A stretch of DNA of 64,000 nt, from positions 1,024,001 through 1,088,000 of the forward strand of contig OZ220090.1 of NCBI GenBank assembly GCA_964291625.2, in the 5' to 3' direction. The notes beneath the pieces are model-generated. The model made no database searches. It saw only the letters and a list, made by a program, of their open reading frames with translations, and was not told the origin of the DNA. Below, in pieces: positions 8,615 to 64,000 of the stretch. This stretch comes from Candidatus Latescibacterota bacterium. GTDB lineage: Bacteria; Latescibacterota; UBA2968; UBA8231. Every line of letters starts with the position of its first letter. Within the stretch, counting starts at the first letter, position 1. A program made the position numbers and the translations under genes.

Positions 8615-8615
8615 C

Positions 8616-12457: not shown

Positions 12458-12458
12458 T

Positions 12459-12833
12459 CTATCCCCTTTCCTGGGAACGAGCCGGCTTGCTGAGGACGAC
12501 CTCGGTCCCCCGCCTCAGCGTCAACCGCAGGTAGTCCTCCGTCGTCTCGAACTCCGGGTCGACACCGTTGTGGGCGCGCATCTGGGGGATGATCTTGTTG
12601 CGCACCCCCATGCCCCGCGCATCGGAGTAGCTGTAGTCCCGCAGCGTCTCGGAGATGAGGAGATTGCGGGGCACCCGCTGGCCGGCCACCATCTTCTCGA
12701 CGGTCATGCCGTTCTGCAGCGCGCCGGGGCTGAGGATCTCGATGCGGTCCGAGTAGCGGACCACCTCGATCTCCTCGTACCGCGTCCAGTCGCGGTGGGT
12801 CAGGGTGCGGACTTCGCGCTCGCCAGTGCTCAC
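12459..12833 (-). pseudogene. C-terminal fragment of an ATP-binding HATPase_c_4 (RecG-C-like) protein
   Basis: THRDW...YSDRIEILSPG...RNLLI...RGMGV; N-terminal part absent. Confidence 0.7.
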
Positions 12834-13698: not shown

Positions 13699-13915
13699 GT
13701 CGTCCGTCAGGGCCCCGGGTCCCCGGGGAGGTCGTCGCCCTCACCGCGGTTGGCCCGCGAGTCGAGCCGGCCGGCGATGGCGATGATATTGAAGTATAGT
13801 GAAACCAACTGTCGGTCCGGCCGGGCCAGGCCCGCCACCAATCTCCCTTGACCACGATCACCTTCGCCGTTACCCTCAACTCCGTCAACCACTTACGTCG
13901 CCTGGCCAGGCGCTG

Positions 13916-14590
13916 ATGGACGGTCCCCGGCGCCGGGTGGCGTGGATCCCGGCCCTTCTCATCTTCGCTGCCATCCCCCTCATACCCGATCCGCCGGCGC
14001 CCGTGGAGCGCGTCCCGGCCCTCGACCTGGAGTCCGTGCGCTCCGCCGAGTGCGAGTACCGGGGGATCACCGCCTCCTTCGACGAGATCACCCGGGCCTA
14101 CGCCCTCACCGCCTTCGACAACCCCCGCCTCCAGGGCTGGGAGGCCCGGCCGAACCCGGCCAGCCCCGAGACCGAGGCCCTGGTGACGGCGGCCTTCCTC
14201 GTCGACGGGGTCCGGCCGCCGGAGGACGGCGCGGAGGTCCCGGACCTGCGCCGCCGGGCCGGCGAGACCCTGCGGGTCACGTGGAGGCTGAACAACCTGG
14301 CCGCGGTCCCGGTGAACGCCTTCGACGACTATTCCCGCGACGCCCTCGACAGCTTCCGCCGCACCGTGGACGGGATGCTCGAGCGCATGGTCTACCTCGC
14401 CTGGCCGGCGGGCCTGCGCACCTCCCCCGGAGCCGCCGACAGCACCCGTCTCGAGGCGGCCACCGTGCTCCTGCTGGAGGAGGACCCGGACAGCCTCGGC
14501 GGCGGCTGGACGCGGGTGCGGGTGCCCGCCGACACCACCGCCGGCTGGGTGCGGTCCGACCTGCTGCGCCCGGTCCACGGGAACGACTGA
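13916..14590 (+). CDS. Exported hypothetical protein with a C-terminal SH3-like segment
   Basis: Hydrophobic N-terminus; [21 protein letters not shown]; stop overlaps the next ATG. Confidence 0.55.
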
Positions 14591-34269: not shown

Positions 34270-37200
34270 TCATGGGCGGCCGGGTCCCCCCGAGAGATAG
34301 GGCGCCATGTCCCAGAGCAGAATCGTGCCGTCCCAACTCCCGGTGGCCAGGATGGCGCTATCGGGGGTGAACGCCAGGTGAAGGACCTGGTCGGAATGCC
34401 CCGCAAAGAAGGCCTTGAGCTGACCGAGGGCCACGTCCCAAAGCAGAACCGGGTCGTGGCCCCAACCACTACTGGCCAGGACGGATCCATCGGGCGAGAA
34501 GACCAGCGAACGCACGGCGGAGGTATGCCCCTCGAGAGTGGCCCTCCGCTGGCCGCCGGCGACATCCCACAGGCGGACCGTCCCGTCCCTGCTTCCACTT
34601 GCCAAGGTGGTTCCATCAGGCGAGAAGGCCAACTCCATCACGTCCTGGGGAGCCTGCCATAGCGTGGCCTTGATCTGGCCGCTGGCCACGTCCCACAGGA
34701 GAATCCTCTTCTCGAATGAGCTGGCGCTGGCCAAGGTCGCCCCGTCCGGTGAGAACGCCAGCCGATCGACTCTATCTGTATGCTCCTCGATGATGGCCTT
34801 CGGTTGGCCGTCGGCCGGGTTCCATAGCCGAATCGACGGGTCCAGAGGACCCCCACCACTTGCCAGGGTGGCACCATCCGGAGAAATCGCGAGGGAAACA
34901 ATGAGACTCTGTGCTTTGAGAGTTGCCCGAGGAAGGCGGCTGGGTACATCCCACAGGTAGACTGTGCTGTCCGGCCAGGATCCAACACTGATCAGAGTGG
35001 ATCCATCCGGCGAGAAGGCCAACCTCTCGACCGTTGAAACATGGCTTTCGAGGACGGCCTCCGGTTGACCGCTGGCCGCATCCCAAAGCCGGATCGTCAG
35101 GCCGTCAGAGCTGGCCAAGGTGCCTCCGTCCGGCGAGAACGCTACCGAGGTGGCATGCTCATCGGTTGGCAGGGAAGCCTTCAGTTGACCACTCGCTACT
35201 TCCCACAGGCGGATCTCGCGCCACTCGGCATTGGCGACGGTGGACCCGTCCGGGGAAACAGCCAGAGAGCGGATCCCGGAGGAATGCGCCAAGCCTGTCC
35301 GAACGGAGCCATCGGCCACATCCCACAGGCGAACGATGTTGTCAGCGCTGGCAGTGGCCAGATCGGTCCCCTTCGGCGAGAACGCCACCGAAGTGCCTTT
35401 GTATGCGCGGCCTCCAAGGGGAAGGGTCCTCATGAGCTCGCCACTGGAGGAAGTCCATAGATGCACCGCTTTCTCGTAACTGCTGCAACTGGCGAGTATC
35501 ATCCCATCCGCAGAGAATGCCACCGCGTTTACCGGGTATATCGGGGGTGAGGGCCAGTAAGCGAACTGGCTGGAGTCCCAGTCCGTGCGACCCGTCAGAG
35601 TGGCCCTCCAGTGCCCGGCGGTCACGTCCCACAACCCGACCGAATTCGATTCTCCGGCAGCGGCCAAAGTGGCTCCATCCGGGGAGAACGCCACCGAAAA
35701 GACGCTGTTGTAGACCCCCTCTTGGAGGGCCTTGGGTCTTCCGCTGGGTACATCCCACACCTGAAGCATCGATCCTTCCCGGAATTCTCGCGACCCGGCA
35801 CTGGCGCCGACAAGGGTGGCACCATCCGGCGAGAACGCCACCGAACGGGGAACCTTATTGGCCTGCAGGGTAGCCTTTGTCTGGCCGCTGGCCACGTCCC
35901 ACAGCCGGAACGTACGCTCCCCGCCGGCACTGGCCAGTGTAGCCCCCTCTGGCGAGAATGCCACCGAGGCAATCGGTCCCTGATGTCCTTCCAGAGTGGC
36001 CTGGAGTTGACCGGCAACCACGTCCCACAGCCGAAGAGTGGCGTCCTGGCTGCCACTGGCCAGGGTAGCTCCATCGGGCGAGAACGCCACCGAGGTCACG
36101 GGCCTCACATGTCCGGTGAACAAGTCGACTTCCGCGCCGGTGCCCCCATCGTAGAGCCAGATGCCAATGCTGCTGGCCACCGCCAGCCGGTCGCCGTCGG
36201 GGGAATAGGCGACAGCCCGGTCGCTATCGCCGATCCACCCCTTGCCCAGACGGGCGAGAGCGCCTTCGGGCAGTTCCCAGAATTGGTAGGCCGGCCGCTC
36301 AGGGAAACCTCCCCTGTCCACCACAGGGCTACCATCAAGCAGGGCCAGCGCCACCGGGGTGGCCAGACCCGTGCTAACCAGGAGCTCCACGCCCGTTCCA
36401 TCCAGATTGCTGCGCTGGATCCGGTCGCGGCCCGAGTCGGTCCAGTAGAGCTTGCCCTCCTCGACGTCCACCGCCAGCCCCCGGGGAGTGACCAGACCCG
36501 CAGTGATCAGGTCTTCCACCTCGGAGCCGTCCAGGTTGGACCGTTGAATCCGGTCGGTGCCGTAGTCGGTCCAGTAGAGCTTGCCGCCAACCGGATCTAC
36601 CGCCAGTCCAATGGGAGTGACCAGGCCGGCCGTCACCAGATCCTCGATCCGAGAGCCGTCGAGGTTGGACCGCTGAATCCGGTCGGTGCCCGCGTCGGCC
36701 CAGTAGAGCTTGCCCCCCGCCGGGTCCAACGCGAGCCCGGTGGGAGTGACCAGGCCGGTGGTGACCAGATCCTCCACCTGGGAGCCGTCCAGGTTGCATC
36801 GCTGGATCTTGTCCGTGCCCGAGTCGGCCCAGTAGAGCTTGCCCGCCCCCCCGTCCACTACCAGTCCCCGCGGGCCTGCGAGCCCCGTGGTGACCAAGTC
36901 CTCGATCCGGGAGCCGTCCAGGTTGGACCGCTGAACCCTGTCGGTTCCCGCGTCGGTCCAGTAGAGCTTGCCCCCTGACCCGTCTACCGTCACGCCGCTG
37001 GGCGTGATCAGACCGGTGACCACGTCCTCCACGTTGGAGCCGTCGCGGTTGGACCGCTGGATCCGGTCCGTGGTCCAGTCCGCCCAGTAGATCTTGCTCC
37101 CCACGTACGGCGGCTTCGGGGCCACCGGCGACCCGATGTCGGCGGGCAACAGCGGATGGGAGGGATCGACGCTGTGGATCATCAGCAGCCAGGCGTCGGT

Positions 37201-38082
37201 GATGTCCACCTGGCCGTCGGCGTTCACATCGCCCAGGGCGATGTCGCCCTCGTTCGGCATGACCGTAGAGGGGTCGATGCTGTACAAAGCCACCAGAAGG
37301 GCATCGGTCACGTCCACCCGGCCGTTGTTGTCCACGTCTCCCAGGAGGGGCTCGGCAGCCGAGGAAGCCCTCTTCGCCACAGGGGGTCCGCGCGACGCCT
37401 GGACGGCGATGTCCAACACCGCCCCTTCGGCCGGCACCTGAAAGGCTGGCTCGACGTAGGGAGTCAGCCCTGCGCCCGACACGACCAGGCCATATGCAGG
37501 CAGCGGCGCCAGCCGGCCGGGCTCCACAACCCCTGAGGCCACCCCCGCCGCCACTCCCGCCTGGCCGTCCACCAGCACCATGCGCCCCGTCAGGGAGACG
37601 CCCTCCCCGCGCAGCCGGTAGAGGTAGATGCCCGCCGCCACCGCCCGGCCGGCCGCGTCCGTGGCCTGCCACCGAGCCGTGTGGTACCCGGCCGGATGCG
37701 GACCGTCTACCAGGGTGGCGATGCGCTGACCCACCAAGTTGAACACCTCCAGCCGCACGTGACCCGGGGTGGGCAGCTCGTAGGGGATGATCGTGGCGGG
37801 GTTGAACGGGTTGGGGTAGTTCGGCCCCAGGTGGATTCGCCGAGGCAGCGCGCGGACGGAGGAGGAGGACGAAGCCCCGGCGGGAAGGGTGAAGCGGCCC
37901 GATGCGTCCGTGGTCGCGCCGGCGGGAGGGAGGCGGAGATCGGCCAGGTCGAAGAGGAGCAACCGGGCGCCGGCGGCGGGTTCGCCGGAGGCCAGCCGCA
38001 CCCGGCCCTCGAGGGCGGGCTCCGCGGCGGCCTGCGAGACCAGCAGGGCAAGGGCCAAGAGGCCGACGAACGTGCGATTCAT
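34270..38082 (-). CDS. Large secreted protein: FlgD-Ig/T9SS-CTD-like domain, dockerin-like pair, six LDLR class B (YWTD) repeats and ~14-15 WD40 repeats
   Basis: Signal peptide; NYPNPFNPAT...VFNLVGQRIATL...GIYLYRL; GDVDNNGRVDVTDA and GDVNADGQVDITDA; six K(L/I)YW(T/A)D repeats; AFSPDG...LWD repeats. Confidence 0.88.
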   Translation of the reverse strand: MNRTFVGLLALALLVSQAAAEPALEGRVRLASGEPAAGARLLLFDLADLRLPPAGATTDASGRFTLPAGASSSSSVRALPRRIHLGPNYPNPFNPATIIPYELPTPGHVRLEVFNLVGQRIATLVDGPHPAGYHTARWQATDAAGRAVAAGIYLYRLRGEGVSLTGRMVLVDGQAGVAAGVASGVVEPGRLAPLPAYGLVVSGAGLTPYVEPAFQVPAEGAVLDIAVQASRGPPVAKRASSAAEPLLGDVDNNGRVDVTDALLVALYSIDPSTVMPNEGDIALGDVNADGQVDITDAWLLMIHSVDPSHPLLPADIGSPVAPKPPYVGSKIYWADWTTDRIQRSNRDGSNVEDVVTGLITPSGVTVDGSGGKLYWTDAGTDRVQRSNLDGSRIEDLVTTGLAGPRGLVVDGGAGKLYWADSGTDKIQRCNLDGSQVEDLVTTGLVTPTGLALDPAGGKLYWADAGTDRIQRSNLDGSRIEDLVTAGLVTPIGLAVDPVGGKLYWTDYGTDRIQRSNLDGSEVEDLITAGLVTPRGLAVDVEEGKLYWTDSGRDRIQRSNLDGTGVELLVSTGLATPVALALLDGSPVVDRGGFPERPAYQFWELPEGALARLGKGWIGDSDRAVAYSPDGDRLAVASSIGIWLYDGGTGAEVDLFTGHVRPVTSVAFSPDGATLASGSQDATLRLWDVVAGQLQATLEGHQGPIASVAFSPEGATLASAGGERTFRLWDVASGQTKATLQANKVPRSVAFSPDGATLVGASAGSREFREGSMLQVWDVPSGRPKALQEGVYNSVFSVAFSPDGATLAAAGESNSVGLWDVTAGHWRATLTGRTDWDSSQFAYWPSPPIYPVNAVAFSADGMILASCSSYEKAVHLWTSSSGELMRTLPLGGRAYKGTSVAFSPKGTDLATASADNIVRLWDVADGSVRTGLAHSSGIRSLAVSPDGSTVANAEWREIRLWEVASGQLKASLPTDEHATSVAFSPDGGTLASSDGLTIRLWDAASGQPEAVLESHVSTVERLAFSPDGSTLISVGSWPDSTVYLWDVPSRLPRATLKAQSLIVSLAISPDGATLASGGGPLDPSIRLWNPADGQPKAIIEEHTDRVDRLAFSPDGATLASASSFEKRILLWDVASGQIKATLWQAPQDVMELAFSPDGTTLASGSRDGTVRLWDVAGGQRRATLEGHTSAVRSLVFSPDGSVLASSGWGHDPVLLWDVALGQLKAFFAGHSDQVLHLAFTPDSAILATGSWDGTILLWDMAPYLSGGPGRP
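36400..37100 (-). repeat. Six intragenic ~129-bp tandem repeats (YWTD propeller)
   Basis: CCAGTAGA motif recurs at 36442, 36571, 36700, 36829, 36958 and 37084. Confidence 0.9.
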
Positions 38083-38150
38083 GCCACCCACTCCCTCAAA
38101 AAGAGCCAGGAGAGAACTAGCACACCTGCTCCCCAGGAATCCAAGGGAAT

Positions 38151-51275: not shown

Positions 51276-52250
51276 TCACGCCTGCGTCAATTCGAGGCTC
51301 TGCGGTGCAATCGCTTCGGACATGTAGAGCGATCCTGCCGCGTACTCCTCAAGCAGATCCTGAACCTCGGCGATCTCGGACAGGCGATCGAATCGCACAC
51401 GTCCCTCCTCGATGGCGGCGACGAGAATATCCTGCGGCTCGAACTGGCTGATGAGAACGGGCGAGTGGGTGGCGAGGAACACCTGCTTGTTCCACTGTCC
51501 GACGGCTTCCTTGACGGCCTTCGCGAAGACGGCGATAGCCCACGGATGCAGTGACGTTTCCGGCTCGTCGAACAACAGGACCGATTCCCTCTCTCCTTCC
51601 GAGAAGAGCGCGATGAGCAGAAGCAGCAATTGCAGGTGCCCATCGCTCACCTCGGACGCGAGTATCCCCTCACGGCGCCCTTGCTCAAGGAAGCTGGCGT
51701 AGACCGAACTTGGTCCGGTCTGTTCCAGCGCGATGCCGTCGAAGGTGGGGAATGCCTCGCTCATGCACCGCATGATCGTGCCGTGGCGAGGGTCGATTCT
51801 CTGTTTGTCCTGGAGGTTCCTGAGCACGGACCAGGCGTTGCTTCCAGGGTCCGAGAGCAGGGTCTCGCGGCTGCTTTCGGATCCGCTCTTCTTGAGGCGC
51901 GAAAGGCGGAAGGATCTGGAACGATACCGACGAACATGGTGCAGCAGGCGATCCAGAGACCCGGCCTCGGCATCTCCTGGATTGAAGGTGACGCCGCCGG
52001 CCGTCAGCTCGACCTCGATATCCTGATCGGCGTCTGCTCTGTCCCGCAGAGTCTCAATGCTGTGCCCCCGCTCGGAAGACGCAGATTCGACACCCTGGAT
52101 CGCGCAGTCCCTGAAGAAGCAGAGTGTGTCGAGCAAGGTGGATTTTCCGGCGCCGTTCGGACCGCAGACGACGTTGATCTGACCCAGGTCGAGATCGACG
52201 TCAGCGAGAGCGCGGTAGTTCCTGACGCGAATCCTCGTCAGGCCGCTCAA
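51276..52250 (-). CDS. ABC-type AAA ATPase (AAA_21/AAA_15-like), orphan, possibly internally shortened
   Basis: RVRNYRAL, GPNGAGKST, VSDG, FDEPETSLHP, LATHSP; lower GC3 than neighbours. Confidence 0.8.
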   Translation of the reverse strand: MSGLTRIRVRNYRALADVDLDLGQINVVCGPNGAGKSTLLDTLCFFRDCAIQGVESASSERGHSIETLRDRADADQDIEVELTAGGVTFNPGDAEAGSLDRLLHHVRRYRSRSFRLSRLKKSGSESSRETLLSDPGSNAWSVLRNLQDKQRIDPRHGTIMRCMSEAFPTFDGIALEQTGPSSVYASFLEQGRREGILASEVSDGHLQLLLLLIALFSEGERESVLLFDEPETSLHPWAIAVFAKAVKEAVGQWNKQVFLATHSPVLISQFEPQDILVAAIEEGRVRFDRLSEIAEVQDLLEEYAAGSLYMSEAIAPQSLELTQA

Positions 52251-54160
52251 GAAGAGACCTCCACGGAGCTCACCGCCCCGGCCCGTCCCATGGCGTTGAC
52301 GGCGCGCGCCTCCAGGCGGTTCTCGCCGGTGTGCAGAGGCCAGGCGAAGGAGGCGGGGCGCGCCTCCCAGCCGCCGGCGTCGACGCGCACCTCGAAGCGC
52401 TCGAAGTTGGGACAGACGGCCTCCAGATCGACGCGCAGCTCCGGCCCGCCGCCGGCCTGCAGGTGGATGCGGGTGCGGTCCACGTCCCAGTAGAGGTCGG
52501 CCTCGCGGTCGGTGTGTCGGCTGAACCAGGGCAGGGCCGGGGTCTTGTCGTCCTCCCAGAACAGGTAGCCGTCGTAGTGGTAGGAGCCGGCGCCGTGCTC
52601 GGGCTCGCCCGGGCTCAGGGTGGCGGGCTCGTCGTTGCGGCGGTTGATCATGAACCGCATCCACAGGTGGATCCGGTTCTCCACGTTGAAGCGCTCGCCC
52701 GTGGCCTCCGGGGGCGGCGGGCTGACGCGGATGTCGTCGAGGTCGTCGTTCACCCAGGCCGTGTGGGCCTCCAGGGCGGTCAAGGGGACTCCGTGGCGCT
52801 CGAAGTGGTAGGTGAACTTGGTGGCGTCGTTGCTGTCGCCGCCGGGATCCATGGTCACCCACTTGCCGTAGTCGTTCGACCAGACCTCGGTGATGCAGTG
52901 GGAGCGCATGATCTGGGTGCGCGCCGTGAACCCGAGGGCGGCGCAGCACTGGGTGAAGACGGAGGCGTAGTGGGTGCACATGCCGAGGGCCAGCTGCTGG
53001 CCGGCCAGCTCGAGGATGACCAGGGCGTCCCAGGGCGGGCAGTAGTTCAGGCCCCCCATGTTCCAGCCGTCCTCCCACTGCTCGCGGACCCACTGGCGCA
53101 GGCGCGTCAGGGCCTCGAACTCGGTCTTGGCCGGGCCCACCACCTGGTCGAGCTTCCAGCGCTCGCGCAGGAGCTTCGCCCGGGGCTCGTCGGCGCCCAT
53201 GTACGAGAACCGCCAGGAGCTGTACGCCAGGGGGCGGTTGTCCGCTTCCGCCAGCCGGACGGCGGCGGACTCCCGCGCCTCGACCCGTGCCGACAGGCGG
53301 GCCCCGGTCAGGGTCGGGGTCACCGCCGGGTCGGCGGTCGACAGCAGGGCCCGCCACTGGAAGAACCGGGCGCCCTCCGGCACCTGTGCCTCCCCCTCCA
53401 GCGGCGCCCAGGCGCTCCAGGCCGCGGGCTCGTACGCCGGCGTCGGACCGGCCCGCCACTCGAGGCGGCGGCTCGTGCCCTCGGGCTCGCGCCCCTCCAG
53501 CTCGACGCGCACGCCGAGGGCGGCGCCGTCCATGGCGATCCCCCCCTCCTCGCGGCCGAGCAGGTCCACCGCCTCGGAGCAGATCTCGCCGGCGGCCATG
53601 TGCTGGTCGAGCCACAGGCGCACCACGTACTCGCCGTCGGCGCGGTCGTTCACGCCGAGCTCGTCGGAGCGCCAGGTCTGTCCGCCGTCGTCGCTGACCT
53701 CGCTGCGGTCGGGCTGCACGCTCTCCTCGACGAGCACCGTCCACTCGGCGTCGCCCACGGCGCGCAGCACGACCTCGTTCTCCCCCTCCCGCAGCCACGC
53801 GGGATCGATCTCCACGGCGCGCCAGCGGTCGACCCAGTACTCGCGCTTCTCCTCCCACGCGAAGCGGGTCGCGTGCCCGTTGACCAGCGCCTCCAGCTCG
53901 CCGCCGGTCCGGTCGCAGGAGAGGTAGCCGATCAGCTTCGCCCCGGAGGCCGACACCGGGCCGAGGACCAGGCCCTTGCGGATCCACCGCCCCCCGGCGA
54001 TGCGCTCCAGGTCGCGGTTGTTGCAGCGCGCCGCCTCGTCGGCGGCCATCTCGCCGCGGCGCAACTGCAGGCCGCCGTCGCGGCGGACCACGTTGCGGCG
54101 GGTGCAGCGGTCGAGGGCCTCGGGGCCTTCCCATGCTCTCGTGGTCGTCGTCTCGGACAT
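52247..54160 (-). CDS. Transglutaminase-like domain protein
   Basis: Cys-His-Asp triad GMCTHYA...SHCITEVW...WVTMDP. Confidence 0.78.
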   Translation of the reverse strand: MSETTTTRAWEGPEALDRCTRRNVVRRDGGLQLRRGEMAADEAARCNNRDLERIAGGRWIRKGLVLGPVSASGAKLIGYLSCDRTGGELEALVNGHATRFAWEEKREYWVDRWRAVEIDPAWLREGENEVVLRAVGDAEWTVLVEESVQPDRSEVSDDGGQTWRSDELGVNDRADGEYVVRLWLDQHMAAGEICSEAVDLLGREEGGIAMDGAALGVRVELEGREPEGTSRRLEWRAGPTPAYEPAAWSAWAPLEGEAQVPEGARFFQWRALLSTADPAVTPTLTGARLSARVEARESAAVRLAEADNRPLAYSSWRFSYMGADEPRAKLLRERWKLDQVVGPAKTEFEALTRLRQWVREQWEDGWNMGGLNYCPPWDALVILELAGQQLALGMCTHYASVFTQCCAALGFTARTQIMRSHCITEVWSNDYGKWVTMDPGGDSNDATKFTYHFERHGVPLTALEAHTAWVNDDLDDIRVSPPPPEATGERFNVENRIHLWMRFMINRRNDEPATLSPGEPEHGAGSYHYDGYLFWEDDKTPALPWFSRHTDREADLYWDVDRTRIHLQAGGGPELRVDLEAVCPNFERFEVRVDAGGWEARPASFAWPLHTGENRLEARAVNAMGRAGAVSSVEVSS

Positions 54161-55526: not shown

Positions 55527-56620
55527 ATCGAGTAGCGCTCCAGCTTCTCCTCGTCCACGTCGACGCCGAGACCGGGCCCGTCGGGCACGGCGATCCGGCC
55601 CTGCCGGAAGACCAGCGGCTCGGCGAGCACGTCGTCCACCAGGCCGTGGTAGCAGGTGTCGCTGGGTCCGGAGAAGTTCGGCGTCGACGCGGCCAGGTGG
55701 GTGATGGCCACGGTCTTGAGCCCCAGGTCGTGGGAGCAGTGCATCAGGCAGGGCACGCCGAAGCCCTCGGCCACGCGCGCCACCTTCTGCACCGGCAGCA
55801 CGCCGCCGGCGGCGGGGGTGTCCGGCATCAGGTAGTCGCCGGCGCCGGAATGGAGCAGGGGCACGGCGCTCTCGGGGCCGGTCACGCCCTGGTTGACGAG
55901 GATCTCCATGCCCGCCTCCTCGCGGCAGCGCACCAGGACCTCGGCGTGCTCGCCGTCGCAGGGATCCTCGAAGCGGTTGACCCCCACCGCCTTCATCTTC
56001 TCCATCACCTCGAAGGCGCCTTCGGGGCCGTAGCCGCCGTTGGCGTCGGGCCGCAGCTCGGCTTCGCCGTCGATCTCCCGGACCACCGCCTCGGCGATGG
56101 GCAGGTCCTGGCCGGGGTCGTTGCCGGCCTTGGTCTTGAGAGAGGTGAAGCCCCAGCGGTCGACGTACTCGCGGGCCGTGGCCGCCGACTCGGAGGGCTC
56201 CTTCAGGCCCATGCAGGCCGTGAACTCCGCCTCCTCGCGCAGGCGCCCCCCGAGGAGGCTGCACAGGGGCAGGCCGGCGCGCTTGCCGAGCAGGTCCCAC
56301 AGGGCCATCTCCACTCCGGAGGCGGGACCGGCTCCGACTCCCGCCGCCTTCATGGCCGCCAGGGCGCCCTCCACGTCGTCGGCGCGGCGCCCGGTCAGCA
56401 GGTCAACGGCGGCCGGCTCCAGGCGGGCGGTGCCCTCCCCCCAGCCGGTGAGGCCGTCGTCGGTGTCGACGCGCACGATGAGGGCCGTGCCGCCCAGGGT
56501 GCCGCCCCCTCCCCCGCGGCCGACGTAGGGACCGACGGGCGGCGCGTAGGGGATGTGGACGGTCCAGCTCTTCAGGGCCCGGATCTTCACGCTCTCCTCC
56601 TCGGCATGCGGGGAATCCAT
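55523..56620 (-). CDS. Mandelate racemase/muconate lactonizing enzyme family
   Basis: GWGE, EMALWDLLGK, LKTKAG, DANG, FEDP, GPGLGVDVD. Confidence 0.9.
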   Translation of the reverse strand: MDSPHAEEESVKIRALKSWTVHIPYAPPVGPYVGRGGGGGTLGGTALIVRVDTDDGLTGWGEGTARLEPAAVDLLTGRRADDVEGALAAMKAAGVGAGPASGVEMALWDLLGKRAGLPLCSLLGGRLREEAEFTACMGLKEPSESAATAREYVDRWGFTSLKTKAGNDPGQDLPIAEAVVREIDGEAELRPDANGGYGPEGAFEVMEKMKAVGVNRFEDPCDGEHAEVLVRCREEAGMEILVNQGVTGPESAVPLLHSGAGDYLMPDTPAAGGVLPVQKVARVAEGFGVPCLMHCSHDLGLKTVAITHLAASTPNFSGPSDTCYHGLVDDVLAEPLVFRQGRIAVPDGPGLGVDVDEEKLERYSI

Positions 56621-56622
56621 GC

Positions 56623-57708
56623 TCAATCGATGGGCTCGTACTTCGGCTGCCTCGGGGCGCGTTCGCGCTCGAGGCGGTAGGGACGGCCGGCCTGCAGGGG
56701 CAGTTCCACGCGGGCGCCGCCGCACACGTGGGACTCGATGAAGGCGAAGATCAGCTCCGTGTTGGTGCGCGCCAGGCGCGCGCCTCCCCGGGGGGGCTCC
56801 CCGGTGTCGAGACTGTGCACGAGATCCTCGATCAGGCACACGGTCGAGCTCTTGCGCTGGTACTCCGGGAAGGGGCTGCGGCCCAGCACCGGGCGCCCCC
56901 GGTGGTCCTTCCCCTTGGGCTCCCGGATCTCCCACTCCTCGCCGTTCTGCATCGCCGTGGCCACGCCGCCGCTGCAGATTGCCTCGATCTCGGAGCCGCG
57001 GCCGCTGTTCAGGGCGTAGGCGGTGACCCCGTCCTCGAACTGCAGGATCCCGTGGCCGACGGGGTCCTCGCTCAGCCGATCGCCGTCGATGACGCCGTCG
57101 CCCTCGGGCAGGTGGGCCTGCACCCAGGCCACGGGGCGGTCCGAGTGCAGGCGCAGGATCAGGTCGAAGCCGTGGCTGGCGCTGTTGAAGAGAGTGCCCG
57201 TCGAGTGCAGCACCAGCGACTTCAGCCGGCCGATGCGGCCCCCGTCGATGACCTCCTTCATGCGGTCGTACCCCGGGTCCCAGCGCCGGTTGGTCCCCAT
57301 GTTGAGGACCGCGCCGTGGGCCTCGCAGGCCTCGACCATGGCGTCCGCGTCGGCCAGGGAGGCGGAGAATGCCTTCTCGGCGTAGATGGCGCGGACCCCG
57401 TGGGCGGCGGCGAAGACGACGACCTCGCGGCGCTGCTCGGGCTGGGTGGCGACGCTGAGGATCTCGGGCTTCTCGGCCTCGATCATCCGCCGGTAGTCGG
57501 TGTACTGCCGGTCGGCGGGCACCCCGTAGCGGCGCCCCACCTGCTCCATCACCTCCGGGCGCAGGTCCGAGCAGGCGACCATGTCGGTGCGCTCGCAGGC
57601 TTCGTACCCGGCGGCGTGCGAGTACGGCCGGCGGGCCGGCGGCACCTCGTTGTCGATGAAGGCCCCCATGCGGCTGCAGCCGACGAGGGCGGCGCGGTAG
57701 CGATGCAT
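56623..57708 (-). CDS. Gfo/Idh/MocA oxidoreductase
   Basis: LVGCSRMG, IYAEKA, NRRW; paralogous to 20530-21642. Confidence 0.88.
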   Translation of the reverse strand: MHRYRAALVGCSRMGAFIDNEVPPARRPYSHAAGYEACERTDMVACSDLRPEVMEQVGRRYGVPADRQYTDYRRMIEAEKPEILSVATQPEQRREVVVFAAAHGVRAIYAEKAFSASLADADAMVEACEAHGAVLNMGTNRRWDPGYDRMKEVIDGGRIGRLKSLVLHSTGTLFNSASHGFDLILRLHSDRPVAWVQAHLPEGDGVIDGDRLSEDPVGHGILQFEDGVTAYALNSGRGSEIEAICSGGVATAMQNGEEWEIREPKGKDHRGRPVLGRSPFPEYQRKSSTVCLIEDLVHSLDTGEPPRGGARLARTNTELIFAFIESHVCGGARVELPLQAGRPYRLERERAPRQPKYEPID

Positions 57709-57712
57709 TTGC

Positions 57713-59227
57713 TCAGCTCCCGGGAGAGGTCGGTGCGCCGGAGTCGAAGAGGGACTCGTCGAACCGCCCCTCCTCGTCGAGGGGAAAGACGCGGCGCCCC
57801 AGGTTGCGGAAGGTCACCGCCTGGGGGGAGTGAACCGAGGACTCCCCCACGAGGTGAACGGCCCCGGCCCACGACTCGAAGCCGGCGCGGAAGTGGGCGG
57901 CGGACTTGACCCCCACCCAGCGCATGCTCCGCGGGTCGAGGCCGAGGGTGCGGGCGAAGGCGGTGTCGAAGGGCTGCTCGCGCTCGGTCACCAGCAGCAC
58001 GTGCACTCCGTCCTGCTCGATGTGGGCCGAGGGCCCCATGCTCGCCTCGAGGCCGGCGAAGATCGGCCCGTCGTAGTGGAAGGCGCCGTCGCTGACGGCG
58101 ATCACGCGGGCCTTCATGGGCACCGGCTCGCCCTGCAGGGGATGGGACTTGCCGCCCACCCGCAGGTCGAGGGCGGCGCCGGCCCCGGCGCCATGGCAGG
58201 CGGCCACCGACTCCGGGTCGACGATGTAGAGGACGCAGGCCTGGCGCAGGCCGGCCTCGACAAAGGCCCGCAGCATGCCGGTGCTGTCCCCGGGGGACCC
58301 GCCGCCGGTGTTGTCGTCACGGTCGGCGATGACGGCCGGGAAGAGCCCGTCGGCCTCGACCTGCCGCAGGACCTCCTCCGTCGACCGGCGGGGCTCGTGC
58401 CAGTCGCGGCGGCGCTCCCAGATCCAGCCGCCCAGCTCGTCGGCGCAGGCCTGGGCCAGCTCCTCGTCGCCGTCGGCCACCACCGTCACCGAGGCGCCCA
58501 TGCAGGGCACGTCGGCCAGGGGGAAGCAGGTGCAGACCGAGGCGCAGACCACCCCCGGCCGGGCCTCGATCCCGTGGAGCCGCTCGATCGTCTCCCGCAT
58601 CGGCGGGTGGGCGGTGACCTGGTGCATGCCCCACATCATCGGCACCGGGTGGAAGGCCATCACCGGCCGCAGGCCCTCGCGGACGATGCGCACCAGCACG
58701 TCGGCGCACTCGCGGCCCCGCTCGGCCATGTCCACCTCCGGGTAGCTCTCGCGCCCGATGAGCACGTCGGCGGCGGCGACCATCTCGGCCGACATGTTGG
58801 TGTGGATGTCGTGGGCGGCGCAGACCGGCACCGAGGGGCCCACGACCTCGCGGACCCGGCTGAGGATGTGGCCGTCGGCGTCGTCGAGGCCCTCGGCCGC
58901 CATCGACCCGTGCAGCTCGAGGAGGACGCCGTCGATCTCGCCGGCGGCCCGGAGGCCGTCGAGCAACTCGGTCAGGATCTCGTCGAAGAGAGCCCGGGGC
59001 GTGGGCGCGCTCGGATGGGGCTCGGCGTGGATCGTGGGCACCAGCTCGAAGCCGTGGTCCTCAGCGCCCTCGATGAAGCCGCCCATGGGGCTGTTGGTGC
59101 CGCGGAAGGTGCGGATCAGCTCCTCGCCGCGCAGGTAGCCGAAGCGGGCCTCGTAGCTGTGGCGGCCGGTGGGCACCGGCGTGAAGGTGCTCGACTCGTG
59201 GCTGATGGTGCCGGTGGCGACGCGCAT
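57713..59227 (-). CDS. M81 metallopeptidase (MlrC family)
   Basis: HESSTF, LELHGSM, DIHTN, YPEVD, DNTGGG, VGVKSAAHFRAGF. Confidence 0.9.
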   Translation of the reverse strand: MRVATGTISHESSTFTPVPTGRHSYEARFGYLRGEELIRTFRGTNSPMGGFIEGAEDHGFELVPTIHAEPHPSAPTPRALFDEILTELLDGLRAAGEIDGVLLELHGSMAAEGLDDADGHILSRVREVVGPSVPVCAAHDIHTNMSAEMVAAADVLIGRESYPEVDMAERGRECADVLVRIVREGLRPVMAFHPVPMMWGMHQVTAHPPMRETIERLHGIEARPGVVCASVCTCFPLADVPCMGASVTVVADGDEELAQACADELGGWIWERRRDWHEPRRSTEEVLRQVEADGLFPAVIADRDDNTGGGSPGDSTGMLRAFVEAGLRQACVLYIVDPESVAACHGAGAGAALDLRVGGKSHPLQGEPVPMKARVIAVSDGAFHYDGPIFAGLEASMGPSAHIEQDGVHVLLVTEREQPFDTAFARTLGLDPRSMRWVGVKSAAHFRAGFESWAGAVHLVGESSVHSPQAVTFRNLGRRVFPLDEEGRFDESLFDSGAPTSPGS

Positions 59228-59342
59228 GGGGGCTCTTCCGGCCTTCGGGGAGCGGGTGCGGAGGCCGAAGTATAGGTCCTTGGCCGGAGGCCGGGCGAGG
59301 GTTGCTCCGGTGCCGCGGTCTTCGCGCCGCGGCACCAGTCCG

Positions 59343-60182
59343 TCAGCGTGAGAAGGGGTGCTTGATCCGCCCCCATCCCGCGGGGGACGCCTGGGTGTCC
59401 GTTGGCCTCAGGCCGACCAGCACCGCCTGCGCGAAACCGCTGGCGTCCTCCTGCAGACCCCTGGCTCCGCCAGGCGGAGCGGGATAGGTGATGACACTGT
59501 AGCAGTTCGAACGTCCAACGCCATTGTTGTCGGCGGCGAGCACGGCCAGGGTGATGGTATCACCGATCCTCAGGTCGGAGCGTACGCTCTCCCCGGGGCC
59601 CGCGTCGCTCACCACGTCGAAGACCGTGAGCGACAACTCGACGCGCGTCACCTTCTCATCCGGGTCCAGGGCACCCACCCCGTGGATGAACTCCGCGGAG
59701 TTCCGCCACTCGCCTACGGCTCCGGTGTAGCGGATCGAGGGGCCGTCCTCGGCGAAGGGAAGCACCTCGACTCGCTGCGCCGTGGCCGCGTCCGAGGCGA
59801 CTTCCTGGGGCGCCACCTCGACCATGAACTCGAACTGGCCGTCGCGCCAGATGTCGAAGGGCCGATCGGAGATCTCATGATCGATTCGCTCGAAGGCGAC
59901 GAGCACGCGATCCGGCGGCAGCACGGCAATCCAGATCTCGATCCAGAAAGTACCCGGGCAGTACCCATGGGCGGATTCGCTGGGGTCCGCCCACGTATCG
60001 ATTTCCTTCAGCATCGGCGGACCGATGATCTGCCGCCAGTCCGTCAGGTCACCGTCCACCTGTATGGCATGGGCGTCCGTCAGCACAGGGATCTCGAGCG
60101 GCAGCAGGACCGGAGGCTCCCCGGCCGAGCAGATCCCTGGCAGCGCAGCGAACAGCAGGACAAGGGCTGGCGCTCTCAGCAT
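59343..60182 (-). CDS. Array copy U1: secreted DOMON/CBM9-like protein (279 aa), tail GWGRIK
   Basis: Signal peptide ending CSA, IQVDGDLTDW, WRDGQFEF. Confidence 0.85.
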   Translation of the reverse strand: MLRAPALVLLFAALPGICSAGEPPVLLPLEIPVLTDAHAIQVDGDLTDWRQIIGPPMLKEIDTWADPSESAHGYCPGTFWIEIWIAVLPPDRVLVAFERIDHEISDRPFDIWRDGQFEFMVEVAPQEVASDAATAQRVEVLPFAEDGPSIRYTGAVGEWRNSAEFIHGVGALDPDEKVTRVELSLTVFDVVSDAGPGESVRSDLRIGDTITLAVLAADNNGVGRSNCYSVITYPAPPGGARGLQEDASGFAQAVLVGLRPTDTQASPAGWGRIKHPFSR

Positions 60183-60228
60183 GGCATGCCTCGTTGCGGC
60201 CTGCTACGTGTCCAGCGACGCCCGACCG

Positions 60229-61065
60229 CTACCATCTCAAGAGCCGCTTGAGCGAGCCCCAGCCCGAGGGCAGCACCACCGTCGGAGGCGGTTCCAGGCC
60301 GACCAGCACCGCCTGTGCGAAACCGCTGGCGTCTTCCTGCAGCCCCCTGGCTCCGCCAGGAGGAGCGGAATAGTAGATGACCTGGTAGCAGTTTCCATCG
60401 TCATTTTCGTTGGCGGCGATCACGGCCAGGGTGATGGTGTCACCGATCTTCAAGTCGGAACGAACGCTCTCCCCGGGGCCCGCGTCGCTCACCACGTCAA
60501 AGACCGTGAGCGACAACTCGACGCGCGTCACCTTCTCATCCGGGTCCAGAGCAGCCACTCCGTGGATGAACTCCGCCGTGTTCCGCCATCGGCCCACAGC
60601 TCCGGCGTAGCGGATCGAGAGGCCGCCCTCGGCAAAGGGAAGCACCTCGACCCGCTGCGCCGTGGCCGCGTCCGAGGCGACTTCCTGGGGCGCCACCTCG
60701 ATCATGAACTCGAACTGGCCGTCGCGCCAGATGTCTCTGACACTATCTGAGATCGAATGGTCCCATCGGTCGAAGGCGACGAGCACGCGATCCGGCGGCA
60801 CCACGGCAATCCAGATCTCGATCCTGAAAAGCTGCTGGTGGCAGAACGCATAGTCGGATTCGGTGGGGTCCGCCCATACGTCACGTTCCGTGAGCATGGG
60901 CGCACCGATCACCTGCCGCCAGTCCCCCAGGTCACCGTCCACCTGAATGGCATCGGCGTCCGTCAGCACCGGGATCTCGAGCGGCAGCAGGACCGGAGGG
61001 TCCCCAGCCGAGCAGATCCCTGGAAGGGCGGCGAACAGCAGCACAAGGGCTATCGCTCTCAGCAT
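60229..61065 (-). CDS. Array copy U2 (278 aa), tail GWGSLKRLLRW
   Basis: ATG after GAGG RBS; paralog of U1. Confidence 0.85.
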   Translation of the reverse strand: MLRAIALVLLFAALPGICSAGDPPVLLPLEIPVLTDADAIQVDGDLGDWRQVIGAPMLTERDVWADPTESDYAFCHQQLFRIEIWIAVVPPDRVLVAFDRWDHSISDSVRDIWRDGQFEFMIEVAPQEVASDAATAQRVEVLPFAEGGLSIRYAGAVGRWRNTAEFIHGVAALDPDEKVTRVELSLTVFDVVSDAGPGESVRSDLKIGDTITLAVIAANENDDGNCYQVIYYSAPPGGARGLQEDASGFAQAVLVGLEPPPTVVLPSGWGSLKRLLRW

Positions 61066-61111
61066 GGCACGCCTCGCTGCGGCCTGCTGCGTGGCCAACG
61101 ACGCTTGGCCG

Positions 61112-61939
61112 CTACCATCTCAAGAGCCGCTTGAGCGAGCCCCAGCCCGAGGGCAGCACCACCGTCGGAGGCGGCTCCAGGCCGACGAGCACCGCCGGCG
61201 CGAAGCCGCTGGCGTCTTCCTGCAGCCCCCTGGCTCCGCCAGGAGGAGCGGAATAGTAGATGACCTGGTAGCAGTTTCCATCGTCATTTTCGTTGGCGGC
61301 GATCACGGCCAGGGTGATGGTGTCACCGATCTTCAAGTCGGAACGAACGCTCTCCCCGGGGCCCGCGTCGCTCACCACGTCAAAGACCGTGAGCGACAAC
61401 TCGACGCGCGTCACCTTCTCATCCGGGTCCAGAGCAGCCACTCCGTGGATGAACTCCGCCGTGTTCCGCCATCGGCCCACAGCTCCGGCGTAGCGGACCG
61501 AGAGGCCACCCTCGGCAAAGGGCAGCACCTCGACTCTCTGCGCCGTGGCGGCGTCCGAGGCGACCTCCTGGGGCGCCACCTCGATCATGAACTCGAACTG
61601 GCCGTCGCGCCAGATGTCTCTGACGTTACCTGAGATCGAACGATCCCATCGGTCGAAGGCGACGAGCACGCGATCCGGCGGCAGCACGGAAATCCAGATC
61701 TCGATCCAGAAAGTCGACGGACAGTACGCGGATTCGCTGGGGTCCCCCCACATGTCGATCATCGCGAGCGTCGGAGGACCGATGACCTGCCGCCAGTCCG
61801 CCAAGTCACCATCCACCTGTATGGCATCCTCATTCGTCAGCACCGGGATCTCGAGCGGCGGCAGGACCGGAGGGTCCCCGGCCGAGCAGATCCCCGGCAG
61901 CGCGGCGAACAGCAGCACAAGGGATATCGCTCTCAGCAA
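61112..61939 (-). CDS. Array copy U3 (275 aa)
   Basis: TTG at the position of the U1/U2 ATG; paralog. Confidence 0.85.
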   Translation of the reverse strand: MLRAISLVLLFAALPGICSAGDPPVLPPLEIPVLTNEDAIQVDGDLADWRQVIGPPTLAMIDMWGDPSESAYCPSTFWIEIWISVLPPDRVLVAFDRWDRSISGNVRDIWRDGQFEFMIEVAPQEVASDAATAQRVEVLPFAEGGLSVRYAGAVGRWRNTAEFIHGVAALDPDEKVTRVELSLTVFDVVSDAGPGESVRSDLKIGDTITLAVIAANENDDGNCYQVIYYSAPPGGARGLQEDASGFAPAVLVGLEPPPTVVLPSGWGSLKRLLRW

Positions 61940-61985
61940 GGCGAGCCTCGCTGTGGCCTGCTCCGTGGCCAACGACGCCCGACCG

Positions 61986-62825
61986 CTACCATCTCAAGAG
62001 CCGCTTGAGCGAGCCCCATCCCGAAGGCGACACAACCGTACGACGCGGTTCCAAGCCGACCAGCACCGCCTGCGCGAAACCGCTGGCATCCTCCCGCAGA
62101 ATCCTGGCAGGAGGGAATGGATAGGTGACGACCGCGACGCACCAGTCACAAGGATCGACATCGACGCCTATCACCCCCAAGGTGATGGCATCACCGACCT
62201 TCAGGTCCGACCGAACGCTCTCCTGGAGCCCCACGTCGCTGACCACGTCGAACACCGTGAGCGACACCTCCACGCGCGTCTCGATCTCGTGATTGGCCTT
62301 GGGTGGGTCCGAGTCGGTCACCCCGTGGAGGTACTCGCTCGTGTTCCGCCACGCGCCCAAGGCTCCGGCGTAGCGGACCGAGAGGCCGCCTTCGGCAAAG
62401 GGCAGCACCTCGACTCTCTGCGCCGTGGCCGCATCCGAGGCCACCTCCTGAGGCGCCACCTCCACCATGAACTCGAACTGGCCCTCGCGCCATCCATCGA
62501 CTACCTGGTCGCTGACCTCCGTGTCTCGTCTCTCGAAGGCGAGGAGCACACGGTCCGGCGGCAGCACGGCAATCCAGACATCAAGGTGATAATCCAACAA
62601 ATCTCTCATGGGGTCGCCCTCGGTGACGTCCCCCCACATGTCGATCGGCGCGAGCGTCGGCGGACCGATGACCTGCCGCCAGTCCGCCAGGTCACCGTCC
62701 ACCTGTATGGCATGGGCGTCCGTCAGCACAGGGATCTCGAGCGGCGGCAGGACCGGAGGCTCCCCGGCCGAGCAGACCCCTGGAAGGGCGGCCAACAGGA
62801 CCACGGCCGTCATGCTTCTCAGCAT
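61986..62825 (-). CDS. Array copy U4 (279 aa), the most divergent
   Basis: ATG start; paralog with distinct variable segments. Confidence 0.85.
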   Translation of the reverse strand: MLRSMTAVVLLAALPGVCSAGEPPVLPPLEIPVLTDAHAIQVDGDLADWRQVIGPPTLAPIDMWGDVTEGDPMRDLLDYHLDVWIAVLPPDRVLLAFERRDTEVSDQVVDGWREGQFEFMVEVAPQEVASDAATAQRVEVLPFAEGGLSVRYAGALGAWRNTSEYLHGVTDSDPPKANHEIETRVEVSLTVFDVVSDVGLQESVRSDLKVGDAITLGVIGVDVDPCDWCVAVVTYPFPPARILREDASGFAQAVLVGLEPRRTVVSPSGWGSLKRLLRW

Positions 62826-62878
62826 GGGACCCCTGTCAGATGGGCGATCAGCAAAGCAGGTGGAACGCCAGCCGGCCG

Positions 62879-63712
62879 CTACCATCGCCAGAGACGCTTG
62901 AGCGAGCCCCATCCCGAGGGCCGGACCACCGTAGGAGGCGGCTCCAGACCCACCAGCACCGCAGGCGCGAAGCCGCTGGCGTCCTCCTGCAGACGCCTGG
63001 CTCCGGCAGGGGGATAGTCGATGACACTGTAGCAGCTCGAACGTCCATCGCCATTGTTGTCAGCGGCGATCACGGCCAGGGTGATGGCATCACCGATCCT
63101 CAGGTCGGAGCGCACGCTCTCCCCGGGGCCCGCATCGCTCACCACGTCGAAGACCGTGAGCGACAACTCGACGCGCGTCACCTTCTCATCCAAGTCCAGA
63201 GTACCCACCCCATGGATGAACTCCGCCGTGTTCCGCCATTGGCCCACAGCACCGGTGTAGCGGATCGAGAGGCCGCCCTCGGCGAAGGGAAGCACCTCGA
63301 CCCGTTGCGCCGTGGCCGCGTCCGAGGCGACTTCCTGGGGCGCCACCTCGATCATGAACTCGAACTGGCCGTCCCGCCAGATGTCGAAGGGCCGATCGGA
63401 GATCTCATGATCGATTCGCTCGAAGGCGACGAGCACGCGATCCGGCGGCACCACGGCAATCCATATCTCGATCCAGAAAGTACCCGGGCAGAACGCATAA
63501 TCGGACTCTGTGGGGTCCGTCCATACGTCACGTACCGTGAGCAAGGGCGCACCGGTGACCTGCCGCCAGTCCGTCAGGTCACCGTCCACCTGCATGGCAG
63601 CGGCGTCCGCCAGCACCGGGATCTCGAGCGGCGGCAGGACCGGAGGGTCCCCGGCCGAGCAGATCCCCGGCAGCGCGGCGAACAGCAGGACAAGGGATAT
63701 CGCTCTCAGCAA
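62879..63712 (-). CDS. Array copy U5 (277 aa)
   Basis: TTG start; paralog. Confidence 0.85.
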   Translation of the reverse strand: MLRAISLVLLFAALPGICSAGDPPVLPPLEIPVLADAAAMQVDGDLTDWRQVTGAPLLTVRDVWTDPTESDYAFCPGTFWIEIWIAVVPPDRVLVAFERIDHEISDRPFDIWRDGQFEFMIEVAPQEVASDAATAQRVEVLPFAEGGLSIRYTGAVGQWRNTAEFIHGVGTLDLDEKVTRVELSLTVFDVVSDAGPGESVRSDLRIGDAITLAVIAADNNGDGRSSCYSVIDYPPAGARRLQEDASGFAPAVLVGLEPPPTVVRPSGWGSLKRLWRW

Positions 63713-63758
63713 GGCGAGCCTCGCTGTGGCCTGCTCCGTGGCGAGCGACGCCCGGGCA

Positions 63759-64000
63759 CTACCATCTCAAGAGCCGCTTGAGCGAGCCCCAGCGCGAGGG
63801 CAGCACCACCGTCGGAGGCGGTTCCAGACCCACCAGCACCGCCGGCGCGAAACCGCTGGCGTCTTCCTGCAGACGCCTGGCCCCAGCGGAACCGTAGCCG
63901 GTGACCCTGTAGCAGTGTGAATCGCTTCCATCGCCATTGTTGTCGGCGGCGAGCACGGCCACGGTGATGGTATCACCGATCCTCAGGTCGGAGCGCACGC
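63759..64000 (-). CDS. Array copy U6 (C-terminal part only)
   Basis: VRSDLRIGDTITVAVL...QEDASGFAPAVLVG...RWGSLKRLLRW. Confidence 0.85.
   Translation of the reverse strand, partial: VRSDLRIGDTITVAVLAADNNGDGSDSHCYRVTGYGSAGARRLQEDASGFAPAVLVGLEPPPTVVLPSRWGSLKRLLRW

Follow-up and report, generated by a model that had tools for sequence, protein, structure and literature searches.

The right end of a 64-kb stretch of the Candidatus Latescibacterota contig OZ220090.1 (positions 1,024,001 to 1,088,000; hereafter the window) carries head-to-tail paralogous genes on the minus strand, each about 880 base pairs (bp) long and spaced 874–893 bp apart. The gene copies in the window are mosaics produced by homologous recombination among intact genes. 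The array is probably a gene accordion of intact, secreted paralogs with a fold like that of carbohydrate-binding module family 9 (CBM9) and DOMON domains, the loops of which are recombined in a bacterial lineage that includes sponge symbionts. Confidence that the array is a recombining accordion is high, confidence that loops are mixed functionally is moderate, and confidence in programmed antigenic variation, a diversity-generating retroelement, or an artefact is low.

The five complete units, U1–U5, have pairwise nucleotide identities of 74–92%. Only the 3′ part of U6 lies in the window. The homolog P0038, which is 278 residues long, matches the C-terminal sequence of U6 and carries the N-terminus typical of the first gene of an array, indicating that the array probably contains six genes. 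Each of the six copies is a full-length open reading frame (ORF) that has a start and a hydrophobic N-terminus of its own, as judged for U6 from P0038; the impression of an earlier note on this DNA that every copy is intact was thus correct. Tested for array membership, the genes are intact paralogs, arranged head-to-tail at one fixed locus. The positions of the units, of the variable blocks (VR) lying between framework blocks (FR), and of the tracts shared between copies are given in Table 1.

Relatedness between the copies changes along the gene. The earlier note had claimed that U2 and U3 look identical over ~292 bp, that U5 matches U1 over another segment with two mismatches, that U3 and U4 share a segment encoding LADWRQVIGPPTLAxIDMWGD, and that U3 and U5 have a common leader and TTG start; alignment of the units reproduced all four similarities, and the coordinates in the note proved exact. 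Inside the 292-bp tract, U2 and U3 differ in 0 of 92 polymorphic columns, compared to 66 of 211 outside it (Fisher p = 1.4e-12, for tract boundaries chosen from the data). The corresponding numbers for U1 and U5 are 2 of 56 columns inside their 117-bp tract and 107 of 247 outside it. The U1 segment of this tract also forms a 117-bp exact run with the fourth gene copy of a related locus, L001. The tract shared by U3 and U4, which belong to different loop classes described below, represents a cross-class exchange 5′ of VR1b. In alignment columns 199–284, the best tree pairs U2 with U5 and U3 with U4 (approximately unbiased test p = 0.97; 13 of 15 trees rejected).

The pairwise homoplasy index (PHI) test detected recombination among U1–U5 with p = 5e-5 (92 informative sites, 20,000 permutations). 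The earlier note had named a single tree fitting all parts of the gene as the outcome that would speak against recombination; no such tree exists, as for every one of the 15 five-taxon topologies there is at least one among six segments that rejects it. Because the six segments were picked by eye, PHI is the test free of bias. Of 100 data sets simulated on a single tree with the clustered rates seen in the units, two reached PHI p < 0.05, and none contained an exact run above 146 bp (median of the longest runs 83), compared to the 292 bp observed. As the window contains no more than the 3′ 242 bp of U6, this unit was omitted from the PHI and tree tests. Tested directly, the phylogenies of variable blocks of the same gene are incongruent.

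A protein search identified 82 homologs, nearly all of them 59–100% identical over the matched parts, and a genome scan returned six loci, of which five, L001–L005, were accepted. The sixth, L006, is a 27-residue match (E 5e-4) and was dismissed as spurious. The array is positioned just upstream of an MlrC/M81 gene in every related locus, the flanks of which are 92–95% identical to the window. L002 and L003 are recorded as Latescibacterota, and Table S1 of PMC8163846 assigns L001 to Latescibacterota UBA8231, with the sponge Coscinoderma matthewsi as its source; by analogy to its relatives, the window organism may also live in a sponge. Nineteen units were aligned, with the partial copies (U6, L004 copy 3, and L005) left out and the frameshifted copy 6 of L001 excluded from codon analyses. 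In the latter copy (~13545–14377), the reading frame is disrupted by a 4-bp deletion in VR1a; the copy is either a pseudogene or an assembly error. The last copy in L005 (486–782) seems to begin at about residue 180, 20 bp past the previous stop, owing to an internal deletion or a mis-join (the locus contains 10 Ns).

The same locus contains seven copies in L001, two in L002, three in L003, at least three in L004 and L005, and six here. A distinct first-type N-terminus is present on the first gene in all four arrays in which that end is available, and a last-type C-terminus in four of four translated last genes. Among the 82 homologs, 19 have the first-type end, 22 the last-type end, and three both, the last known as proteins rather than from their DNA context. 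Copy number and order were thus found to vary between related genomes, with fusions of first and last ends. The variation in copy number together with the joined ends in three proteins indicates crossovers, and proteins with both ends are as expected if arrays occasionally collapse to one gene by crossover. Therefore, the term gene conversion, which the earlier note applied to the whole process, may fit the short segmental exchanges but is too narrow on its own: copy numbers of 6, 7, 2 and 3 and the joined ends point to crossovers. Its broader proposal that homologous recombination reshuffles variable blocks is borne out by the tests in the window, by exact tracts of 504, 312 and 284 bp shared within the L001 array, and by a set of 67 near-full-length homologs. 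The 292-bp tract (~60323/61206) and the 504-bp tract, which is shared by L001 copies 2 and 5, both end at alignment column 861, which may only be a common polymorphic site.

It is very unlikely that the mosaics are an artefact of assembly or polishing, in which chimeric consensus sequences of a metagenomic repeat would imitate recombination. The contig is of a metagenome type, the exact combination of blocks in U3 is found only in a cluster of one (P0004), and L001 is a short-read assembly according to its contig name, so that its long tracts could be collapsed repeats. However, the combination in U5 recurs in L001 copy 4 (97% identity) and in P0010, a 12-member cluster with a 6.0-Mb contig; therefore, the junction of U2-like and U1-like sequence in U5 is older than this genome and did not arise as an assembly chimera. 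Furthermore, the VR2 variant of U3 is unlike that of U2 and recurs in P0006 from another contig, and recombined loop alleles occur across dozens of independent contigs. The switch of U5 to U2-like sequence, described in the earlier note, is supported by the grouping of U2 with U5, although the presence of the same combination in L001 copy 4 means that it is not a recent event. A single painted segment from L001 copy 4 covers residues 23–241 of U5, with 12 mismatches over 676 columns, and the leader of U5 alone is painted from U3. The VR2 allele common to U1 and U5 is the commonest in the family, with 20 of 42 class-A proteins carrying it. By contrast, in the comparison of 19 units, the 292-bp tract of U2 and U3 and the leader of U3 and U5 are confined to this genome; both look recent, the former as a homogenization or a duplication.

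Painting of the units places 76 breakpoints over all 11 regions of the gene. The earlier note had proposed recombination through the conserved framework, and FR1 is indeed the region densest in breakpoints (19); however, 28 of the 76 lie inside VR1–VR4. The proportion of incompatible site pairs rises from 0.15 at distances of 1–10 bp to ~0.45–0.5 beyond 50 bp (12 class-A copies, five genomes), and the 42 class-A proteins contain 21 distinct combinations of VR1a, VR2 and VR4. The loop alleles appear to form an old pool common to related species, through inheritance or inter-strain exchange. In class A, FR2 (59845–59935 and equivalents, residues 83–98) has a proportion of synonymous differences (pS) of 0.013, compared to 0.15–0.25 in other framework blocks, and is possibly the block most frequently homogenized.

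We propose that the array evolves by general (RecA-type) homologous recombination between neighbors that are 75–95% identical, with no dedicated enzyme. Unequal crossovers and deletions would alter the number of copies and create fusions in which the 5′ part comes from one gene and the 3′ part from another. Single loops would be transferred by short conversion tracts or by double crossovers, of tens to a few hundred bp, and crossovers and conversion would both draw on the old pool of loop alleles of related species. The product would be exported through its Sec signal peptide, would possibly be retained by its C-terminal WG-x-[LI]-K helix, and would bind a ligand, most likely a glycan, in its CBM9 pocket, the variants of which would be generated by the shuffling of VR1, VR2 and VR4. 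The loop sets of class A (Cys75 and Cys226) and class B (CxxC within VR4) are kept largely apart.

No recombinase, invertase or reverse transcriptase (RT) domains were found among 83 ORFs (72 from the window and 11 from related loci, mostly at least 200 residues long, considering the best five families per ORF), and the 64-kb window contains no array-like DNA, donor fragment or template-like repeat elsewhere. These results bear on programmed antigenic variation of the vlsE, pilE or msp2 type, in which silent donors convert one expressed copy unidirectionally or a site-specific inversion operates. Such a program would be consistent with a secreted protein that has four variable loops between conserved blocks, segmental mosaics and host-associated relatives. 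However, it is made improbable by the six full-length ORFs with start and signal, the lack of donor fragments elsewhere in the window and of a recombinase among the scanned ORFs, the single orientation of the genes, and painting in which every copy is mosaic and none is the sole recipient. The likeness to antigenic-variation loci seen in the earlier note does not extend to silent donors, of which the window has none, and probably not to a single expression site, and diversifying selection is unsupported by the ratios of nonsynonymous to synonymous substitution rates (dN/dS) given below. A site-specific shufflon was rejected on account of the lack of a recombinase among the 83 ORFs, the breakpoints in 11 of 11 regions and the position of all copies on one strand.

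The absence of an RT among these ORFs and of a template-like repeat elsewhere in the window also opposes a diversity-generating retroelement, which would mutagenize the loops at adenines from a template repeat. Variable loops on a binding-type fold are what such an element would produce, and the fraction of polymorphic VR columns is highest for those with A as the majority base (A 0.60, C 0.54, G 0.38, T 0.39). By contrast, in an alignment of 10 of the 12 class-A copies, 45 of the 96 polymorphic VR columns lack an A allele altogether, and the loops contain insertions and deletions, so this explanation is largely refuted and has next to no probability. With no recombinase or RT among the scanned ORFs, no array-like DNA elsewhere in the window and 45 polymorphic columns free of adenine, general homologous recombination remains.

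U1–U5 have no match in Pfam or NCBIfam, and a search of the Protein Data Bank (PDB) with a profile of close homologs returned none. A PDB search bridged through the homolog P0090 returned solely the PKD and TolB domains of that protein. A profile search retrieved 107 representatives, most of which are about 300 residues long and bear both a signal peptide and, at the C-terminus, the WG-x-[LI]-K motif, and the ESM Atlas linked the protein with a score of 0.97 to a Latescibacterota cluster in which 37% of members carry CBM9_1. An AlphaFold2 model computed from a deeper alignment reached a predicted local distance difference test (pLDDT) score of 88; a model built on close homologs alone (pLDDT 35) was unusable. 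The best Foldseek matches of the model are CBM9 structures (E 2.5e-7), and VIA-align superimposes it on 1i82 with a Z of 18.4 and a root-mean-square deviation of 2.7 over 183 residues. The predicted structure of the array protein is therefore a CBM9/DOMON-like β-sandwich. Among 61 remote relatives, five match CBM9_1 at E ≤ 0.01, two of them above the curated cut-off.

The sugar in TmCBM9-2 is described in PMC8280721 as clamped by W71 and W175. Trp113 of the array protein is invariant and lies near the W71 position, with a register uncertain by about one residue (profile alignment and alignment A2). VR2 and VR4 appear by alignment, which is weak for the first segment, to flank the sugar-clamp positions at the pocket rim, and VR1 may correspond, by its order alone, to the region that shapes the end of the CBM9 pocket. 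The array protein is a candidate binder on a CBM9 scaffold, the identity of which as a CBM9 sugar-binder is uncertain, and the ligand of its putative pocket would most likely be a glycan. The remote relatives end in FlgD_ig or Por_Secre_tail domains where the array proteins have the WG-x-[LI]-K helix, which suggests that this helix may be an alternative sorting or anchoring signal. A lipobox was considered and rejected on inspection, since its Cys is not conserved in first-type leaders. No longer fused forms were present among 8000 candidates, which is weak evidence, and literature searches, which covered sources other than subscription journals, returned no description of the family, the array or the C-terminal WG-x-[LI]-K motif.

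The 67 near-full-length homologs comprise 42 proteins of class A and 25 of class B. Class A has one cysteine in VR1 and one in VR4 in 37 of 42 proteins, and class B has none in VR1 and two in VR4 in 22 of 25. Both classes occur in all five genomes examined. The signal, FR1, VR1a and the tail are common to the two classes, and VR1b, VR2, VR3, FR4 and VR4 are class-locked. Only one of 69 proteins typed at VR1b and VR4 (P0055) is an A/B hybrid, compared to 32 expected under free association, a number that is a ceiling and not a proper null, because database proteins are not independent. Two truncated proteins are additional hybrids between VR1b and VR2, and every hybrid joins a class-A 5′ part to a class-B 3′ part. 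FR3, which lies between VR1b and VR4, is 89% identical across the classes and partly homogenized (pS of 0.25, compared to 0.41 in FR4). The class lock is probably due in part to selection against mismatched loops or cysteines. In P0065 and P0068, the loops are of a third type, which diverges further: VR2 contains a 9-residue insertion, and VR4 has three Cys.

Several results weigh against functional mixing of loops by recombination within the array. The limits of the hybrid count have been given, and the class lock could stem from a shorter stretch of homology instead of selection. The dN/dS of class A over VR1, VR2 and VR4, which are regions picked as variable, is 0.94 (95% 0.61–1.48), compared to 0.28 (0.19–0.42) in its framework; the class-B values are 0.54 (0.33–0.88) for the loops and 0.24 for the framework. 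The framework is conserved by this measure and the loops appear to be relaxed or under mixed selection, but loop values of ~0.9 leave positive or diversifying selection unsupported. The W175 position is occupied by Gln or Arg, so that the protein lacks the two-aromatic clamp, and the DGD calcium-site motif of the remote relatives is missing as well; therefore, sugar binding is uncertain. The sequence alignment to 1i82 is weak (E = 0.0026 overall, with 3.8 bits for the W71 segment). Genome-private shared alleles number 35 compared to 22 expected (p = 0.13, no significant enrichment), framework pS is 0.140 within and 0.156 between genomes (p = 0.13), and genome-level concerted evolution is not significant (p = 0.13 and 0.065). 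Painted donors come from the same genome for 24% of bases, compared to 21% expected. Because homogenization within genomes is weak, much of the mosaicism may be old or derived from exchange between strains. The dependence on RecA is something that we infer, and, with the mosaicism read from assembled sequences, shuffling on ecological time scales is conjectural.

A neutral explanation is plausible, although we hold it to be less probable than not. A tandem array of ~85% identity would recombine in any case, its loops would vary as unconstrained surface loops, it would be kept for dosage or by drift, and the combinations of loops would be functionally meaningless. This explanation shares its recombination mechanism with the one that we propose and differs on purpose alone. 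It is favored by a loop dN/dS that is near 1 and not above it, by arrays that shrink to two copies and probably to one, by the 4-bp deletion in one of seven L001 copies, and by the accordion events that S. aureus csa1 undergoes in vitro in the absence of selection, according to the data in PMC7360770. However, loop alleles persist across genomes with flanks that are 5–8% apart, both classes are retained in all five genomes, VR2 and VR4 are placed at the pocket rim, and A/B hybrids are nearly absent. Some VR2 alleles also keep their VR4 partner over ~300 bp (in 6 of 6 and in 4 of 4 cases), although L001 copy 1 breaks one pairing. The correlation between VR2 and VR4 declines from 0.36 to 0.13 when one subclass is dropped. 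Epistasis between VR2 and VR4 within class A is not claimed, as r is 0.09 (p = 0.07) after removal of the subclass and control for the intervening region. A bolder extension, which we regard as doubtful, is that the array constitutes an antibody-like repertoire of an uncultured sponge symbiont, in which an Ig-like CBM9 scaffold would carry pocket-rim loops from an old trans-species pool under balancing selection and two disulfide-defined "isotypes", for strain-specific binding of host or community glycans or for evasion of sponge immune receptors or phages.

Table 1 Units of the array, parts of the encoded protein, variable blocks, shared tracts and the flanking gene, in window coordinates
Feature	Position	Strand	Description
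U1	59343..60182	-	Class A, 279 residues; last of array, with private array-terminal C-terminus; the last genes of L001, L002 and L003 carry this C-terminus type too
U2	60229..61065	-	Class A, 278 residues; reference for residue numbering
U2 protein parts			Signal peptide ~1-20 (read from sequence by eye); CBM9-like domain ~27-256; C-terminal WG-x-[LI]-K helix
U3	61112..61939	-	Class A, 275 residues, TTG start
U4	61986..62825	-	279 residues; sole class-B gene of the window: VR1 without Cys, CxxC in VR4, VR3 insertion
U5	62879..63712	-	Class A, 277 residues, TTG start; 97% identical to L001 copy 4
U6, 3′ part	63759..64000	-	242 bp within the window
VR1	60820..60897	-	U2 residues 57-82; VR1a common to both classes, VR1b class-specific, with Cys75 in class A
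VR2	60730..60771	-	U2 residues 99-112; loop directly before invariant Trp113, at or next to the TmCBM9-2 Trp71 position
VR3	60529..60606	-	U2 residues 154-179; varies mainly between classes
VR4	60343..60420	-	U2 residues 216-241; hairpin with loop and invariant Cys226; lies just ahead of the TmCBM9-2 Trp175 position (Gln or Arg here)
U2/U3 tract	60323..60614 = 61206..61497	-	292 bp, identical; spans VR3-FR4-VR4; flanking bases differ
U1/U5 tract	59845..59961 and 63375..63491	-	VR1b-FR2-VR2, 117 bp, 2 mismatches (59921/63451, 59934/63464)
U3/U5 tract	61838..61969 and 63611..63742	-	Leader and 5′ coding sequence, with the TTG start; two exact runs (53 and 78 bp)
U3/U4 tract	61746..61801 and 62632..62687	-	FR1-VR1a (GENECONV-like scan, Bonferroni p = 0.005)
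MlrC/M81 metallopeptidase gene	57713..59227	-	Downstream flank; syntenic anchor in all related loci; outside the shuffling

Aldolase and dehydrogenase genes lie upstream of the array in the related loci, and no toxin or secretion-system gene was found beside the array among the flanking genes of the window and the related loci. In L001 only, an M10-peptidase and FlgD_ig gene (7923–9068, plus strand) is positioned directly upstream of the array. No sigma-70-like promoter was detected in 59000–64000, the promoter and terminator scan gave nothing above chance, an Rfam scan of 56000–64000 had no match, and phage genomes yielded no match. Elsewhere in the window, a long ORF on the minus strand (34270–38091, 1273 residues) encodes WD40 repeats; eukaryote-like repeats of the WD40 type are among those reported from sponge symbionts in PMC8163846. 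A lower-GC stretch on the minus strand (9344–14578) encodes McrC (9344–10633) and an AAA_5 ATPase (10551–12209), which form a McrBC-type restriction pair, and a RecG-C/Fic-like ORF (12830–14578), and is a putative small defence island. A second lower-GC segment (~51276–52300, minus strand) encodes an AAA_21/AAA_15 ATPase and has low-GC sequence downstream. This ATPase is paired with DUF4276 in L002 (17923–19865) and is missing at the same position in L003, and the segment is a candidate for a variable defence-like insert.

The recombination mechanism has been established in lpl, esaG and csa1, and therefore the mosaicism itself is unsurprising. What appears to be new is its carrier, a protein family without a Pfam or NCBIfam match that was confined in our searches to one Latescibacterota lineage, together with the positioning of shuffled blocks at the rim of a CBM9-type pocket and two loop classes that almost never mix. 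If the loop variants bind different ligands, the family would offer an expressible candidate for the diversification of host or glycan recognition by a sponge symbiont, in a host without adaptive immunity, as well as a small natural scaffold for binders whose loops can be exchanged. If they do not differ in binding, this is an ordinary recombining array.

The closest parallel is provided by the tandem lpl paralogs of S. aureus, for which a model of homologous recombination has been proposed (Tsuru & Kobayashi 2008, PMC2568036). As outlined there, lpl genes are intact tandem paralogs of an exported protein whose variable regions are recombined through conserved blocks; unequal crossing-over results in deletion, duplication and apparent conversion, and exchange between strains is possible. 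The lpl genes are described as having one central conserved block and two variable halves, whereas the array here has four to five variable blocks and breakpoints throughout. Furthermore, the array proteins are not clear lipoproteins, as the Cys following the signal is not conserved, and they have another fold, belong to another phylum and form two rarely hybridizing classes. The S. aureus esaG and streptococcal tipC genes likewise have homology blocks between variable regions, through which genes are gained and lost by recombination at a fixed locus (Garrett et al. 2022, PMC9484751). However, esaG is presented in that paper as a cytoplasmic antitoxin beside a type VII secretion system locus, whereas this array is flanked by an MlrC peptidase gene downstream and, in related loci, by aldolase and dehydrogenase genes upstream. 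Tandem surface-protein genes of S. aureus csa1 expand and contract by RecA-linked recombination; the evidence reported in PMC7360770 is experimental and extends to ~200 copies, compared to the 1–7 copies deduced here from genome comparison alone.

The array protein shares its fold over residues 27–256 with the CBM9 modules TmCBM9-2 (1i82) and CkCBM9.3 (7nwo), which are treated in PMC8280721, and has its invariant Trp at or next to the W71 position. By contrast, its sequence identity to them is 11–12%, and it lacks a Pfam CBM9_1 match, the W175 aromatic and the DGD motif. It also stands alone, with a C-terminal amphipathic helix, and is not a xylanase module. Four variable loops on a conserved fold, recombined from a shared pool of motifs in an invertebrate symbiont, are also known from Wolbachia wsp (Baldo et al. 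2010, PMC2843615). That account describes wsp as a β-barrel outer-membrane protein shuffled between strains, with diversifying selection, whereas the array here is a tandem multi-copy set encoding a soluble β-sandwich, and ω > 1 is unsupported. The silent-cassette systems vlsE, pilE/pilS and msp2 share with the array the segmental mosaics formed through conserved sequence. As characterized in PMC4534519, they require unexpressed donors and one recipient, whereas the array has no silent donors in the window and probably neither a single expression site nor directionality. Ehrlichia, for which the same source mentions tandem full copies instead of silent cassettes, is nearer in layout to the array described here.

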